Notes under the pieces: model-generated
Seen by the model: only the letters and a program-made list of their open reading frames with translations
What the model was told of the DNA's origin: nothing
Databases searched by the model: none
Source: Candidatus Iainarchaeum sp.
Lineage (GTDB): Archaea; Iainarchaeota; Iainarchaeia; Iainarchaeales; JAGVWC01
NCBI GenBank assembly: GCA_018304465.1
Contig: JAGVWC010000002.1
Location: 1-10,930, forward strand
Direction: 5' to 3'
Length of the DNA stretch: 10,930 nt
Shown here: positions 4,827 through 10,206 of the stretch, piece by piece
Numbering within the stretch: the first letter of the stretch is position 1
How the letters are laid out: each line of letters starts with the position of its first letter
Program-made: the position numbers and the translations under genes

Positions 4827-5165
4827 TTAGTCGCTTTTCAGTTTCAGGATCGCTTCGGCGATATCTCCGTCGGTTTCAACCAACGCTTTCTTTGCCTCGG
4901 CTTTCGTTTTTCCCGTTTGCTCGGCCACCATGGCCACGTCGTCCTCTGGAATCCCCGCTTTTTCCTTGCGCTCGGTTCCCATGACGCTGTAAATTTTCTG
5001 TCCCTGCATATCCATGGCCGTCACAGACGGATTATCAATGATGATGCGTTCGTCTTCCAGTTCGAACACCACGCGGCGGGCTTTGATTTCCTCGCTTTTG
5101 ATTCCGAATTGTTTTAGCATACTCTGCATTTGTTTGGGGTTCATACGACCCATTCCCGGAAACAT
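4827..5165 (-). CDS. nac: Nascent polypeptide-associated complex protein (archaeal NAC)
   Basis: MNPKQMQSMLKQFGI N-terminus, NAC domain (IIIDNPSVTAMDMQGQKIYSV) and C-terminal UBA (EDDVAMVAEQTG...GDIAEAILKL). SD GAGGTG at 5173-5178. Confidence 0.96.
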   Translation of the reverse strand: MFPGMGRMNPKQMQSMLKQFGIKSEEIKARRVVFELEDERIIIDNPSVTAMDMQGQKIYSVMGTERKEKAGIPEDDVAMVAEQTGKTKAEAKKALVETDGDIAEAILKLKSD

Positions 5166-5220
5166 CTTTTGGCACCTCTTTTAGTAACACTCTTCAATGC
5201 AAATCGTTTTATTTTTTCCT

Positions 5221-5778
5221 TTACGCTCCGCGAAAACGGCCCAGAACCCAATTCCATCCGAATCGCACCAACAGCTTGAAATCCGTGTACAACGGTTTTT
5301 CTTTCCAGTTCTTGAAATAGACTTCATACGCCTGTTTTAATTCGGTTTCGTTTTTCGGGCGGGTCTTTAATCCATTCACCAGCGAAATCAACGCGGGGCC
5401 CATTGTTTCCAAGTACATCTCCTGAAACCATTTCGGCATGTTTCGAAGGTCACGTTCCGTTAAGAGCCGCGGACCAAACAAACGCACTTTTTTCGTCCAC
5501 AACAATTTCAACTGGGGCAATTCGTCGATCCAAAACCGGCGAAGAAAACGCTTGGACGGCACCACGCGCCAATCGTTTTGACGCGGATCTTTTTTCCCGT
5601 CCCGGTACAATTCCGCTTTAACCGTCCGAGGCGGTCTAATGTTTCCCGGCTCGTCCGCGTCCATCCGCATGGTTCGAAGCTTCATGGTTTCAAGCCGCTC
5701 ACCGGTTTTTCCGATTCGCGTCTGACGAAAAAAAGAATTCCACGCCGCGCGTTTTCGACGGGGCTTTGGCAGGGTCAT
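5221..5778 (-). CDS. Phosphoglycosyl transferase-like protein (bacterial sugar transferase, PglC/WbaP catalytic core), 185 aa
   Basis: Motifs FRQTRIGKTG, KLRTM, DPR, FLRRFWIDELPQL and FGPR. ATG 5778 overlaps the HAD stop (ATGA), which favours this start over the 5973 start in the track. Confidence 0.8.
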   Translation of the reverse strand: MTLPKPRRKRAAWNSFFRQTRIGKTGERLETMKLRTMRMDADEPGNIRPPRTVKAELYRDGKKDPRQNDWRVVPSKRFLRRFWIDELPQLKLLWTKKVRLFGPRLLTERDLRNMPKWFQEMYLETMGPALISLVNGLKTRPKNETELKQAYEVYFKNWKEKPLYTDFKLLVRFGWNWVLGRFRGA

Positions 5779-6506
5779 TTTGACTGCTCTCCGACCCGCG
5801 CGGCTAACATTGCTTCGATTTTTGCAGAAATTTTCGTCAAATCCTCGAACGCCGAAATCATAAAATCGGCTTTGCTTTGCGGAAAATCCTCCGAAGAAAT
5901 CCAAACCGAGACGATTCCGGCGTAATGTGCTCCGATCACGTCGTCTTCGTACGAATCCCCTACCATCGCGCATTGCGTTGCGGAAAACCCGAAACGCTGC
6001 AAGGCATGTTCAAAAAAAGCCGCGTCGGGTTTTAGCAGGCGGGTTTCGCTTGAATACAACTCAAATTCGAAGAACTCTTCCGGTTGCACGCCCAGTAGTT
6101 GCCAGTCGTTTTTCGTCCATTGCCCGATGCCGTTCGAAAGCACGGCGAGGCGAAAAACGGTTTTTAATGAACGCAAGGTTTCGCGAAAACCAACGGGCTT
6201 TGTTATGTAGCGGTTTCGGGTGGCGTGATGCCGTTTCAAAAAATCCATCAACTCTTTTTCGGTCAAACTGATTCCAAGCAAACCGAACATCATCACGGCC
6301 CATTCCACATCGCCAGGAATCAAGCCGGACTGATATAATCCGTAACACTGGCCGTACACGCTTTGCATCTCATCAAACGAAACCGACTCGCATTTGGGGG
6401 TCTCGAGCATCACATCGTACAAGGTCGCCCACATCTTGTTAAAATCAAAGCACTGCAGCGTCTGCGTCAAATCCAACAACAAACCAAACTCGGGCGCCAT
6501 TCTCAT
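5775..6506 (-). CDS. HAD-superfamily hydrolase, subfamily IA-like
   Basis: Motif I LLLDLTQTL, motif II AVLSNG, motif III LLKPD and motif IV MVGDSYEDDVIGA. An in-frame stop just upstream limits the start to 6506 or 6500. Confidence 0.9.
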   Translation of the reverse strand: MRMAPEFGLLLDLTQTLQCFDFNKMWATLYDVMLETPKCESVSFDEMQSVYGQCYGLYQSGLIPGDVEWAVMMFGLLGISLTEKELMDFLKRHHATRNRYITKPVGFRETLRSLKTVFRLAVLSNGIGQWTKNDWQLLGVQPEEFFEFELYSSETRLLKPDAAFFEHALQRFGFSATQCAMVGDSYEDDVIGAHYAGIVSVWISSEDFPQSKADFMISAFEDLTKISAKIEAMLAARVGEQSK

Positions 6507-6647
6507 TTTCTGAACCGATCGATTTTAGAACCTGTTTTCTTCCGAACGCGGTTATACGCTGTGGGCGAATGCGAATCCCGTGACGACTCCGATTTCAAGT
6601 GAAATCATGTGTGATGGGAGAAAGCATTTTTGATATTTACTGTTTTC

Positions 6648-6656
6648 TGATTCGAA
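6648..6656 (+). repeat. Target-site duplication, left copy (TGATTCGAA)
   Basis: Identical to 7678-7686 and directly abuts the left TIR. Confidence 0.8.
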
Positions 6657-6704
6657 GGCTTTGTTTAAAAAGTTAGACTTTGATTACGATTTTGCTGTTT
6701 TCTT

Positions 6705-6723
6705 GGGCTTTTGTTAAAAAAGT
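6705..6723 (+). repeat. Inner (subterminal) inverted repeat, left copy
   Basis: GGGCTTTTGTTAAAAAAGT is a variant of the TIR in the same orientation as the left TIR. Confidence 0.7.
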
Positions 6724-6922
6724 CTTTTCCAAACCCAATTCGTAATAGGCGGTAATCAAACAAGCCTATGCGCGATCGCAACTAAAGTTCGATCATTATA
6801 TCCAAAAATACCAACGAGACGATGCCCCAATTGAAGCACAAAATATATTGCCAATCTTGTATTGGGACAAGATGATCCAAACAAAAATAAGCAACGGAAA
6901 ATAACGGCATAACTCTAAGCGC

Positions 6923-6950
6923 CTGTACCCGGGAGAATTTTCTCGGGCAG
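6923..6950. terminator. GC-rich hairpin, possible terminator downstream of the cargo gene
   Basis: CTG-ta-CCCGGGAGA-at-TTTCTCGGG-CAG pairs with G.U wobbles. On the minus strand a T5 tract follows the cargo stop codon immediately. Confidence 0.4.
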
Positions 6951-6960
6951 ATTGGAAAAA

Positions 6961-7578
6961 CTATATGTCGGTGGAACGGCGATCAATTTTCTGGCGCCTT
7001 TGTTTCGGGCCGCTCAAAGGGTAATCCATGTTCCGACTACTATCATATTCGATGGTAGACACTTGACTCAATCGTTTTGGGTTGGAAAAAAGCCAAGATA
7101 TTGGTACTTTTCGGTCAACAGTGTTAGCCTTATTTTTGGCATAAAATTGAATGTGGCTTCCTTCAAGGGGATAAGAATACAGATAGGCCTTCGTACCGTC
7201 TTTAAAATTTATAGTGTGAGTTCCCCGTATTTTTGTAAAATCTATTTTGGAGAACTCGGCGGGTACCACAGAAAACTGTATACGAGGGGTACCACTTTTT
7301 GTACCGATTTGTTGCTTTCGCCTTTCGTCCCCAACTCTACGCTCGTTAACGCCAAGTCTTCGATCAGCCGCTCCGATTCGTCTGTCTTGGTCGCTTCGTG
7401 TGTCCGTGGTAAGCTGATAAATTCTTTGCTTAACCGAACTGGGGTTTCGAAAATGAAATTGCACAAGATGGGTTCCTTTGGGGTTCTCGCCTGGTTCGTC
7501 CCCCACGTGCCCAAGATATACCACTCGTTTATTTCTTCTGTCCGCAAATCTTCGATTTCCGGGTCTTTTAGCAGGCAT
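6961..7578 (-). CDS. Hypothetical basic protein with tandem (D/E)RR repeats; passenger gene of the element (205 aa)
   Basis: ATG 7578 has SD GAGGT (7587-7591) 8 nt upstream. The protein begins MPAKRPGNRRFADRR, contains DRRIGAA-DRRLGVN-ERRVGD-ERRKQ and ends GPKQRRQKIDRRSTDI. Confidence 0.75.
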   Translation of the reverse strand: MPAKRPGNRRFADRRNKRVVYLGHVGDEPGENPKGTHLVQFHFRNPSSVKQRIYQLTTDTRSDQDRRIGAADRRLGVNERRVGDERRKQQIGTKSGTPRIQFSVVPAEFSKIDFTKIRGTHTINFKDGTKAYLYSYPLEGSHIQFYAKNKANTVDRKVPISWLFSNPKRLSQVSTIEYDSSRNMDYPLSGPKQRRQKIDRRSTDI

Positions 7579-7632
7579 TGGTTTTAACCTCGAAAAAACA
7601 TACACTCTTGCCAAATAAATACCCTTTGGTTG

Positions 7633-7651
7633 AACTTTTGAACAAAAGCCC
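7633..7651 (-). repeat. Inner (subterminal) inverted repeat, right copy
   Basis: The reverse complement reads GGGCTTTTGTTCAAAAGTT; the first 11 nt are identical to 6705-6715. Confidence 0.7.
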
Positions 7652-7677
7652 CCATTCAGAACTTTTTAAACAAACCC

Positions 7678-7686
7678 TGATTCGAA
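7678..7686 (+). repeat. Target-site duplication, right copy (TGATTCGAA)
   Basis: Identical to 6648-6656 and directly abuts the right TIR. It lies 6 nt beyond the stop codon of the 7693 gene. Confidence 0.8.
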
Positions 7687-7692
7687 GCGATT

Positions 7693-8628
7693 TCACGTAA
7701 AACGAGTGAATTCCATCAAAACCAAAAACAGAATCCCGACGGTCCACCAGAAAACCAGCATCAGTACGACAAAATCAACCAGTTTGGATTCGCGTTTGGG
7801 TTGAATCATCAGTCCCCGGTACAAAATCCAAATCAACGCGGGAATCAACAATACAAAACCCGCTCCGATCAAAAACAACAATCGTGTTCCAGGTTCGTTC
7901 GTCCAATCCAGCGAAAAAATCATTAACCCGACAAAAAAAACGGTGACGATCACGGAAAGAACTCCCGCGATTTTTAACGCAAGCGCGGCCTTACGAAACC
8001 ACGCGAACAAACCCGCGAAGGCCAGCGGAAGAATGATCAACAAAAGCACGATCCAGCTCAGTTCCACCAGCGCTTCTTCGTGTCTTTTTTGAATTTCGAT
8101 GCGTCCAATTTCATCTCTGTGTTCCACTAATTGCGCGACGGAACCTACAAACAAAGGCACTTCTTCCTCGGATTCTTGTGAAAGCAGCATGGAACAACAC
8201 GTTTCTTCAACGCATGCCCGGGCACAAGGTGCCGTTCGGCCGTTGACATCCGGAAACACATTTTCTTTCGAACAGCGCGCCGTAATGGCAAAAAAAACCG
8301 ATCGTTCGCTTCGATACACCAACACATAATCTTCTTCCGTTGTCAGTAAACCTGTCTGGTTTTTTTCGTCCTGAAAAAAACAAATGTCTTGGTTTTGATC
8401 CATCAAGCCGTTTCGAGAAACGGTTTCCAACACCAATGGCCAAACCCAACGGTTATGCTCCTGGTTTGAATCCAGCTTCGCTTGATACACCAGACTGTCG
8501 ATTCCAATACCCAATCCCATCGGCATCATGTCGGGGATTGATTCTTCGACACGGTCCAATACTCCCTGTCCCGTCACGGTACCGCTTGCAAACAAAATCA
8601 AACACAAAAAAATGGCCGTTTTTTGCAT
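7693..8628 (-). CDS. Hypothetical membrane protein: signal peptide, Cys-rich extracellular domain, about 4 C-terminal TM helices
   Basis: ATG 8628 is preceded by GGGGT. MQKTAIFLCLILFASGTVTG is signal-like, CARACVEETCC forms a Cys cluster, and four hydrophobic segments occupy the C-terminal third. Confidence 0.82.
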   Translation of the reverse strand: MQKTAIFLCLILFASGTVTGQGVLDRVEESIPDMMPMGLGIGIDSLVYQAKLDSNQEHNRWVWPLVLETVSRNGLMDQNQDICFFQDEKNQTGLLTTEEDYVLVYRSERSVFFAITARCSKENVFPDVNGRTAPCARACVEETCCSMLLSQESEEEVPLFVGSVAQLVEHRDEIGRIEIQKRHEEALVELSWIVLLLIILPLAFAGLFAWFRKAALALKIAGVLSVIVTVFFVGLMIFSLDWTNEPGTRLLFLIGAGFVLLIPALIWILYRGLMIQPKRESKLVDFVVLMLVFWWTVGILFLVLMEFTRFT

Positions 8629-8744
8629 GAAAACCCCATATTTTTCCGTGTTTATATGCATTTCGCTTTGATTCGGCGGATTTTTGGGTTTTGGTGCAAA
8701 GCCTTTTTTATTCCTTTAGCGCTGTCTTCTGTGAGGAATACAAA

Positions 8745-9407
8745 ATGCCCAATGAAGCGATTATTTCCAGTTTCCAAACTTTTAACCAAAAGTTCCCCCA
8801 ACTGGTGCAAACCCAAAAAGAATCCAAGCGCCTGATTGCCCTAAAACGCTATTTTGAACAAAAAATGGTGATTTCGCTTGGAACCATTCCCAAAGGCGAC
8901 GAATGGCCTGAAATCGTTTACCCCACCAAAATGAAACTGCGCAAAGACATGGATCGCTTGGAAAAAATGAAAGGCGATTTGTCCAAACGCCAAAACGACT
9001 GGCAAATGACTTTAACCAAAGCCAAACTTGAAGGCATTACCACGCAAGTCAAAAAATTTTCCGAACCCGCGTACTGGAAACACCTTTCCAAACTGGTCAC
9101 AGACGCGGATTACCGAAAAGACGCCGAAAGCGTCAATCTGCCGGTTCACTTGGTCAGCCACAAGCGCTACAAGCCCATGGTGGAAATGTTCGTCAACAAC
9201 CTTGATTACCGAAAACAACTCACCGAAACCGTTCAAAACTCGGTCGTATACCGGGACAACAAACAACTCGGACGCTACGCCGGCGAATTACAAGCACTTC
9301 GAACCCAACAAAGCCAGAAGACCCTCACACAAACCAAAAAATCGATTTCCGAAATCGACGCCGACATTTCGATGTACCGCGAACTCATGAGCTGGGCGAA
9401 GAAATAA
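8745..9407 (+). CDS. Hypothetical helical/coiled-coil protein (220 aa)
   Basis: ATG 8745 is preceded by GAGGA. Heptad-like K/Q/E-rich segments flank a duplicated DYRK motif. Confidence 0.85.
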   Translation: MPNEAIISSFQTFNQKFPQLVQTQKESKRLIALKRYFEQKMVISLGTIPKGDEWPEIVYPTKMKLRKDMDRLEKMKGDLSKRQNDWQMTLTKAKLEGITTQVKKFSEPAYWKHLSKLVTDADYRKDAESVNLPVHLVSHKRYKPMVEMFVNNLDYRKQLTETVQNSVVYRDNKQLGRYAGELQALRTQQSQKTLTQTKKSISEIDADISMYRELMSWAKK

Positions 9408-9408
9408 T

Positions 9409-10206
9409 TCAACGACGTTTTGGGCGGATCGGTCGAATCCGAACCGTTTTTCGATTTTTTCTTAATTGAATGAGACGCGGTCGGCTCCCACGCACGAAGT
9501 GATCGTTGATTACCGCGAACCCGTTTTTTGCCAGGCTTTTCCGAAGACTCTCTTTGTCCTCCGCTTGGAGTGGCAACGGAAAGCCCGCGGCGGGAATTAC
9601 CAGCACGTCTGCTTTCGAACGATTGAGTGCCACAACATCCGAACACACGCGTAGTTCCACGGTTTTTCCGCCGATTTTCACCCGCGGAAACCGGAACGTC
9701 GCTCCAAGCCACGTGTCCTGCAACTTGGGCGAAACGCTCGGAATGGCTGTTGCCAGTCGGCTGGTGCGTTTTCCGACGTGTTGAATGTCTTTTGCCTCCG
9801 CTCCGTAAAACGCATGCAACCGTGCATCAAAATCAGAAAACGAAAGCTTCGAATATGCCTTCCACTGCACGGGCTTTTGCGGATTGTCGTTAAAAGCATA
9901 GGGCGCAACCAAATACCCTGTGTTTGACAAGCCTTTTCCGGACCCAACTGATTCCATCACCGAGAAAAAAACGAATGCGTTTCCATGCCTATTCAGCATT
10001 GGCTGAACCGACCGGATCCACTCTTTCGTTTCGAAACGCTTGTGACCTGTAGTGGTTGATACCTCCGGGAACACAATGACCAGAGGCGTTTTCGGAAAAA
10101 GCGTCGAAAGCCGCCGAATTTTTTCTGTCAATCCTAAAAAATTCCGCGAGCGCCGATCCACCACCGCAAATCGGATTCCGCGTTTTTCGAGCACAATCAT
10201 TTTCAT
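9409..10206 (-). CDS. Carbon-nitrogen hydrolase (nitrilase superfamily)-like protein, divergent
   Basis: Catalytic triad contexts VIVFPE (Glu), SNTGYLV...YSKL (Lys) and LRVCSD (Cys), followed by ADVLVIPA. The start is probably 10206 or 10200 (GGGAG upstream) rather than 10290. Confidence 0.78.
   Translation of the reverse strand: MKMIVLEKRGIRFAVVDRRSRNFLGLTEKIRRLSTLFPKTPLVIVFPEVSTTTGHKRFETKEWIRSVQPMLNRHGNAFVFFSVMESVGSGKGLSNTGYLVAPYAFNDNPQKPVQWKAYSKLSFSDFDARLHAFYGAEAKDIQHVGKRTSRLATAIPSVSPKLQDTWLGATFRFPRVKIGGKTVELRVCSDVVALNRSKADVLVIPAAGFPLPLQAEDKESLRKSLAKNGFAVINDHFVRGSRPRLIQLRKNRKTVRIRPIRPKRR

Follow-up and report, generated by a model that had tools for sequence, protein, structure and literature searches.

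The DNA analysed here, referred to as the window, is a stretch of 10,930 nucleotides (nt) from the archaeon Candidatus Iainarchaeum sp. (GenBank contig JAGVWC010000002.1, called C4 below, of an assembly with 15 contigs and 1,246,008 bases). It contains an element of 1021 bp (6657-7677) that carries one complete gene and is bounded by inverted repeats and a target-site duplication (Table 1). The inverted ends, GGCTTTGTTTAAAAAGTT at 6657-6674 and AACTTTTTAAACAAACCC at 7660-7677, are complementary at 17 of 18 positions, with the mismatch at position 3, and can be written as GG[C/G]TTTGTTTAAAAAGTT. Identical copies of the 9-bp sequence TGATTCGAA flank them on the two sides (6648-6656 and 7678-7686). 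This direct repeat can be extended to 11 bp, CTGATTCGAAG, only because one base of each inverted-repeat tip matches too; aligned to the ends, its length is 9 bp. The gene encodes a protein of 205 amino acids (aa) on the minus strand, is preceded by a Shine-Dalgarno-like GAGGT and contains no transposase domain; the transposase gene of the element is reduced to its last 29 codons. The insertion is intergenic, since the stop codon (7693-7695) of a minus-strand open reading frame (ORF) lies 6 nt beyond the duplication. An initial annotation of the window had read the repeats, the complete gene with its ribosome-binding site, the lack of a transposase and the intergenic position from the letters, and all of these were confirmed. 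The hairpin that it described downstream of the gene was not: the stem is short (z -0.62), and 48 of 200 shuffled sequences folded equally well. Its view that the perfect duplication marks a recent insertion is plausible. The inner copies of the end motif (Table 1) do not figure in that annotation.

Table 1. Positions of the features of the element in the window
Feature	Position	Strand	Evidence or remark
Target-site duplication, left copy, TGATTCGAA	6648-6656		
Terminal inverted repeat, L end	6657-6674	+	profile built without the window row matches 6661-6776, E 5.9e-20
Transposase relic, last 29 codons, then stop beside the inverted repeat	6676-6762	-	tblastn
Inner (subterminal) copy of the end motif, L end, within the relic	6706-6725	+	conserved in 6 relatives
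Spacer from passenger gene to relic; left edge is the deletion junction	6763-6960		
Passenger gene, 205-aa arginine-rich protein	6961-7578	-	ATG 7576-7578, stop 6961-6963
GAGGT, Shine-Dalgarno-like, 8 nt before the ATG	7587-7591	-	read from sequence alone; putative function
Inner copy of the end motif, R end, ~60 nt before the gene start	7632-7651	-	
Terminal inverted repeat, R end	7660-7677	-	profile match, E 7.5e-11; contigs from other samples diverge at 7677
Target-site duplication, right copy, TGATTCGAA	7678-7686		

The genome was scanned for end pairs with flanking duplications, a check proposed in the initial annotation. Perfect inverted seeds of at least 11 bp, 60-4000 bp apart, numbered 3169 in the 1.25-Mb genome. 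A flanking direct repeat of at least 8 bp was found at one of them, the pair at 6657-7677, and four others reached 7 bp, a result that excludes a chance occurrence. The full 18-mer (up to 2 mismatches) was present at both ends of the element and once on contig C7, and nowhere else in the genome. The G+C content of the element was 0.42, compared with 0.479 for the genome, which places it at the 6.8th percentile among 2470 windows. The segment at 6657-7677 is a real transposition product without a transposase.

Autonomous elements whose two ends are homologous to the two ends of the window element occur in other genomes of the same archaeal order. The end at which the transposase gene stops in these relatives is called the L end, and the opposite one the R end. 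One variant, GGGCTTGTTTAAAAAGT, recurred among the matches of a degenerate end pattern in the 215 genomes of the phylum set, in some cases as inverted pairs with a few kilobases between them, and complete elements were obtained at these places. In the R end, a spacer of ~9 nt separates the terminal repeat from the inner repeat, and this arrangement is conserved across 13 aligned sequences. The L end consists of the terminal repeat, ~32 nt, the inner repeat and further sequence; the 7 sequences aligned for it have a mean column identity of 77% over ~140 bp. Homology begins with the first base of the repeat in both alignments, and the 12 columns of flank are unrelated. A pattern derived from the part common to the ends on contigs C4 and C6 of the host was run on metagenome contigs and gave five loci. 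Three of them (L007, L008 and L010) are real ends, on contigs whose short length leaves no cargo visible; the other two (L006 and L009) have no inner repeat and were taken as chance matches. Likewise treated as chance were nine viral contigs, considered as possible carriers, that match the bare 18-mer alone, with neither inner repeat nor transposase.

Seven complete elements of this family were delimited, including the one in the window, and every one has an in-register flank repeat of 9 bp (10 bp in one of them). They are G165:C1 (3540 bp, flank repeat TTTTGTTAT), G126:C55 (4497 bp, GAAAGCCGG), an element of G017 across the end of C1 and the start of C2 (GGGCGGGCC), an element of G159 from C50 to C60 (flank match of 10 bp), G068:C98 (422 bp, CTTGATTTA), G043:C10 (L066 6423-7019, 597 bp, TAATCAAAG) and the window element. 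These counts are minimum figures, because contigs are broken at repeats in the draft genomes that make up most of the relatives.

Autonomous members have an ORF of 390-395 aa at the L end, with its stop codon at the terminal repeat. The encoded transposase has a DDE domain (PF01609, E 2e-17 and 3.2e-12) and an N-terminal zinc domain of the IS1/IS1595 type, and its best curated model is NF033579, 'IS5 family transposase' (E 1.3e-32). Its best matches on plasmids, at 23-24% identity over ~90% of the query, are annotated as 'IS5-like element IS903B family transposase' and ISAs4. Passenger genes sit between the R end and the transposase gene and differ by host. They encode DUF5320 and DUF134 proteins and a weak deacetylase-like ORF in G165; an unknown 184-aa ORF and a 749-aa S8 subtilase in G126; and an N6/N4 DNA methylase, a proteasome-type protein and two ParB-like proteins in G017. 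The 597-bp element of G043 is itself transposase-less, with a 100-aa MutH-domain fragment and a 78-aa transposase relic. The initial annotation had suggested a family of single-gene cassettes, and no such family was found: each relative is either an autonomous transposon with several genes or a unique deletion derivative, and the breakpoints of these derivatives differ. With a profile of three transposases, the family was detected in 41 of the 215 genomes (26 of 79 genera), including 2 of 3 in the host's own family. A transposase scan of all species genomes confirmed at least 7 loci, a figure that says little on distribution.

The L end of the window element still codes for the tail of this transposase. 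In tblastn searches with four transposases of relatives as queries, the segment 6676-6762 matched the C-terminal 29 residues of the transposase from G165 at 76% identity (E 4.6e-12, 401-base database). The G126 transposase gave a single weak match in the host genome, and this match lies inside the element (6682-6762, E 0.035). The stop codon of the relic stands at the same place beside the repeat as in G165, and an in-frame stop lies just before the relic. No transposase similarity was found by tblastn upstream of 6762 in the frame or on the strand of the relic, and ~360 transposase codons are missing. The order of parts, namely R end, gene, transposase tail and L end, is identical to that of the autonomous relatives.

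We interpret the element at 6657-7677 as a transposase-deleted derivative of a passenger-carrying transposon with an IS5-family DDE transposase, IS903-type ends and a 9-bp duplication, belonging to a family that is spread through the order of the host (probability roughly 0.86). In the mechanism that we propose, the family transposase would bind the terminal repeat, and probably the inner repeat too, at each end. It would then cut at the GG tips and join them to the target with a 9-bp stagger, and repair of the staggered target would give the 9-bp duplication. Transcription of the passenger gene may start from a TATA-like word within the R end's inner repeat, and from its sequence the inner copy at 7632-7651 is a possible TATA-like promoter. 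The element would now move only if a cognate transposase were supplied; the assembly contains none.

The affiliation with the IS903 group was examined with one plasmid copy of IS903B. This copy has the ends GG[T/C]TTTGTTGAATAAATC and a common 9-bp sequence, AGGTTCAGG, in its flanks, and the ends of the window element match its ends at 13-14 of 18 positions. The initial annotation was thus right to compare the ends and the 9-bp duplication with IS903. The window element has the 9-bp duplication and the inverted repeats of ~18 bp starting with GGC that mark this group; in IS903 and IS903B the 18-bp ends start with GGC/GGT-TTTGTT. An IS5-type DDE transposase is present in the autonomous relatives and reduced to 29 codons in the window element. 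The best plasmid matches of the family transposase are IS903B-annotated genes. The family differs from IS903B in that its transposase, of 390-395 aa, is ~24% identical and has the added N-terminal zinc domain, in that each end has a second, inner repeat, and in that its elements are 3.5-5.3 kb long with passenger genes, compared with ~1.06 kb; the window copy also lacks the transposase. Membership in the IS903 group is therefore considered distant, because the NF033579 score (113 bits) is below the cut-off (140) and the identity to IS903B is ~24%.

Elements of this kind are already known: the one in the window derives from an IS5/IS903-type element and resembles a mobile insertion cassette (MIC). 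MIC231 of the Bacillus cereus group, which belongs with the insertion sequence (IS) IS231 and has reportedly been mobilised experimentally, likewise has IS-type inverted repeats and a target duplication around passenger DNA that is free of a transposase gene. Its host is a bacterium group, whereas the host of the window element is an archaeon in which the cassette is single-copy. MIC231 further differs in its IS4/IS231 affiliation and its repeats of 10-12 bp, according to passages of PMC2266710, compared with IS5/IS903 and 9 bp in the window. The same passages place the passenger DNA of the IS231 subgroup between its left repeat and its transposase gene, which is comparable to the extra DNA between one end and the transposase gene in the autonomous relatives, and state that such modularity was then unseen in other IS families. 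[quoted passage not shown] The G165, G126 and G017 relatives resemble transporter ISs, with a transposase and unrelated genes within one pair of ends; the window element, without a transposase, is a derivative of such an element. Like a MITE, it is a non-autonomous IS deletion derivative that keeps its ends and duplication, and the 422-bp relative in G068 fits this class. MITEs are short, non-coding and usually multi-copy, whereas the window element is 1021 bp long, has an intact 205-aa ORF and occurs once. IS5-family elements transpose both conservatively and replicatively, as stated in passages of PMC11708052. The words 'passenger' and 'IS903' are absent from the passages available of a 2026 survey of archaeal ISs (PMC13343696). 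Judged by title and abstract, the literature matches for cassette and archaea included no archaeal MIC, and none of the papers among the literature matches named an insertion cassette, or an IS that carries passengers, for archaea of very small genome size. The transposon family may already be catalogued.

The protein encoded by the 205-aa gene has [D/E]RR repeats in its N-terminal 100 residues and a tail of the RRSTD type. In an AlphaFold2 model built from a 10-row alignment, residues 103-177 form a small beta-rich part, and the N-terminal 100 residues are without secondary structure at low confidence; the mean predicted local distance difference test score (pLDDT) of 55.2 is too poor for a fold search. 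The protein and 10 family members matched no Pfam family, and the protein had no match in PHROGs and no usable match in the ESM Atlas, where its own model has a pLDDT of 0.45. Homologues are present at 9 places in 5 of the 215 genomes, and three of these are in the host (C4, C6 and C11). An exhaustive search of large protein libraries gave 4 matches and added two more homologues; one of the 4, a 1710-aa repeat protein (P0004), looks spurious. In a word-indexed database the protein found itself alone, and a profile gave 3 matches with two more homologues. No homologue was found in the other fetched family elements, and at the seven loci with homologues other than C4 and C6 (C11, and six loci in four other genomes) there are no family ends nearby. 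The gene is treated as a passenger because these loci lack family ends. It is a candidate for the kind of passenger, unrelated to transposition, that marks an MIC: its ORF is intact, it has homologues outside elements and it is absent from the fetched autonomous elements. Our best guess, made with low confidence from composition only, is a small nucleic-acid-binding protein. At one homologue locus, G042:C69 (L011 840-1139 and 3056-3355), a direct repeat of at least 300 nt with 99% identity and a spacing of 2216 bp brackets the homologue and part of the neighbouring gene. This could be a tandem duplication, a small circle assembled twice or an assembly artefact.

The homologue on C6 shows 32% identity to the passenger over 90 residues (E 2e-6). 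Its locus (L002 1361-2216, C6:108808-109663) has a solo R-type end 65 nt after a tRNA-Gly(TCC) gene, and this end abuts the stop codon of the paralogue, which is inverted. A weak end-like word with no duplication is located beyond the paralogue, and the whole locus is flanked by imperfect direct repeats of 24-27 nt (AATATTAC...CCCTTT). It may be an older decayed element or a capture site.

Apart from a 38-nt match at C6, the 1021-bp element is single-copy in the genome. Profiles of the L and R ends, built without the window row, matched the host genome at the two ends on C4 and at the solo R end (C6:108944), with no other matches. The C6 match follows by construction, since the C6 row is part of the R model; independent support for this end comes from an identity of 87% over 38 nt and from a separate match at 35 of 45 positions. 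On contig C7 (65783-65972), two weak inverted end-like words lie 190 bp apart, with 4 and 2 mismatches to the 18-mer and a partial flank match. This pair may be a decayed miniature element or a chance occurrence.

Several points weigh against the interpretation of the element as a deletion derivative of this IS903-like family. It supposes that the transposase would bind the inner repeats and that the R end would act as a promoter, and the relatedness of the transposase to the IS903 group is as distant as given above (113 bits, ~24% identity). The initial annotation had proposed a search for a transposase bounded by the same ends and had read the element as mobilised in trans. No transposase of the family was found in the 1.25-Mb assembly (0 matches at E 1e-20; completeness 91.9%); a cognate transposase may lie in the missing part of the genome. 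The annotation had also proposed to look in related genomes or reads for the site without the element. The contigs of four sequencing runs (X4, X5, X6 and X8) were compared with positions 5000-9500 of the window, a check in which rare variants are dropped and which speaks to presence only. Contigs of X4 bridge both junctions and contigs of X5 the left junction, all in the occupied form. No contig joint skipped the element, and no contig of these runs placed the cassette in another context. One X6 contig stops at 6655; the depth there is below 4 and X6 also covers the interior of the element, and no weight was given to it. Two short contigs of X5 and one of X6 match 7642-7677 alone and continue on both sides with sequence unlike the window; their match ends precisely where the R end does, at base 7677. 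The same communities therefore contain other elements with this R end. The 322-aa gene on the right flank was found in 1 of 31 genomes, that of the host itself, and consequently the relatives searched contain no orthologous empty site.

Two histories lead to the same derivative. An autonomous element with the passenger may have inserted at this site and later lost most of its transposase gene through an internal deletion that left the last 29 codons, or the transposase may have been lost first, so that a ready-made cassette of 1 kb transposed through a transposase supplied in trans. Since no cognate transposase, second copy or empty site was found, loss in place is at least as likely. It requires one element and no helper, it agrees with a single copy in a genome that has no family transposase elsewhere, and the parts of the window element are in the order seen in autonomous relatives. 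It has against it that no fetched autonomous element carries a homologue of the passenger, and the perfect ends and duplication fit recent movement of a cassette equally well. Movement as a cassette is favoured by the intact state of the two ends, of the inner repeats and of the duplication. It is also in line with the other transposase-less derivatives that have 9-bp duplications (422 bp in G068 and 597 bp in G043), with the elements that share the same 36-bp R end in the same communities, and with the solo R end on C6, which points to a second family element once present in the genome. The single copy, the missing transposase, the lack of a second context in the four runs and the absence of the passenger from other fetched family elements argue against it, as does the observation that each deletion derivative is unique, with its own breakpoint. 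We regard loss of the transposase after insertion as an even chance, somewhat likelier than transposition of a ready-made cassette, for which the case is tentative.

Three readings that depart further from the deletion derivative received much less credence. The passenger protein might be a DNA-binding accessory or regulator of the element itself that recognises the end motif. It is basic, with an N-terminal part that was modelled, at low confidence, without secondary structure, and each of the genome's only two R ends (C4 and C6) has one of the three host paralogues within 100 bp. We consider this improbable, given that homologues are absent from every fetched autonomous element and occur at seven loci without nearby family ends, and that the protein has no similarity to any transposition protein. 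Still less probable is that the cassette was moved by another, multi-copy IS of the host. The ends of this IS match the cassette ends at 12-14 of 18 positions, its flanks at the C15 end and the C2 start have the 9-bp sequence CTTGTTTCA in common, and a relative in genome G027 combines a 9-bp duplication with a 286-aa IS5-type transposase. However, 4-6 of the 18 end positions differ, the ends have no inner repeat, and the transposase is faintly similar to that of the cassette family (E 0.0023, 13.9 bits); because of this faint similarity, the G027-type protein was not taken as a helper. Finally, the repeats could be common promoter or regulatory words next to which the flanking 9-mer is a coincidence. 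The motif does include the TATA-like word TTTAAAAA, with the inner copy ~60 nt before the gene start, and a degenerate 17-mer (1 mismatch) was found in 101 of the 215 genomes, where its reversed control was common too. In this genome, full ends are confined to C4, plus the solo end at C6. The scan of seeds, the end alignments with homology from base 1 of the repeat, the transposase tail coded by the left end and the duplications at seven of seven complete elements refute this reading for practical purposes, and its probability is negligible.

The multi-copy IS breaks the assembly of the host. One of its ends (GGCTCTGTTGAAAATGTC...) is carried by C15:307374-307472 and C11:1-99, and the other (GGCTTAGTTGAAAATCTC...) closes the start of C2 (1 to about 90) and the 3' end of C13; its interior is unassembled. 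The relative in G027 is a complete element of 897 bp on contig C3 (L025 631-1527) with the duplication GGCAGGCCA, and its transposase ORF runs through the right end into the flank. A third IS of the host, at C13:169.3-170.3 kb (L019 about 1400-2385), encodes a 294-aa transposase (PF01609, E 4.6e-25; DUF772). Its ends begin with GGCTGTT, and a clear duplication was not observed beside them.

Reliance on gene gain and loss is assumed for archaea whose genomes are very small, and their transposons have barely been described. With its clean ends, the family found here is a concrete candidate for the vehicle by which accessory genes travel in these lineages. Derivatives without a transposase are among its products, and the window element is an ordinary outcome of such a family, one decayed or dependent copy. 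A broader reading, which we regard as speculative and rather doubtful, is that the family acts as a general gene shuttle of this small-genome order: genes would take a place between the R end on one side and an IS903-like transposase with a zinc finger on the other, and mobilisable cassettes without the transposase would spread accessory genes among ultra-small genomes. The cargo in this reading comprises the methylase, ParB-like proteins, proteases, small DNA-binding proteins and the arginine-rich protein. If it is true, the arginine-rich genes beside both R ends of the host would reflect host genes captured repeatedly, through transposition that is one-sided or uses alternative ends.

The archaeal origin of the window agrees with its genes for FttA/aCPSF1, a proteasome subunit, FKBP26 and NAC. 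The runs that contain the stretch are labelled as groundwater and soil metagenomes. To the left of the element, a gene for a HAD hydrolase is located on the minus strand (5775-6506), with its start 150 nt away. To the right, the 322-aa ORF, a membrane protein, occupies 7693-8661 on the minus strand. At 8428-8581, within this ORF, one X5 contig has 26 differences from the window in ~150 bp, and no difference was listed over the part of the element that it covers (to 7526). The segment may be a strain-variable patch in the gene next to the element.

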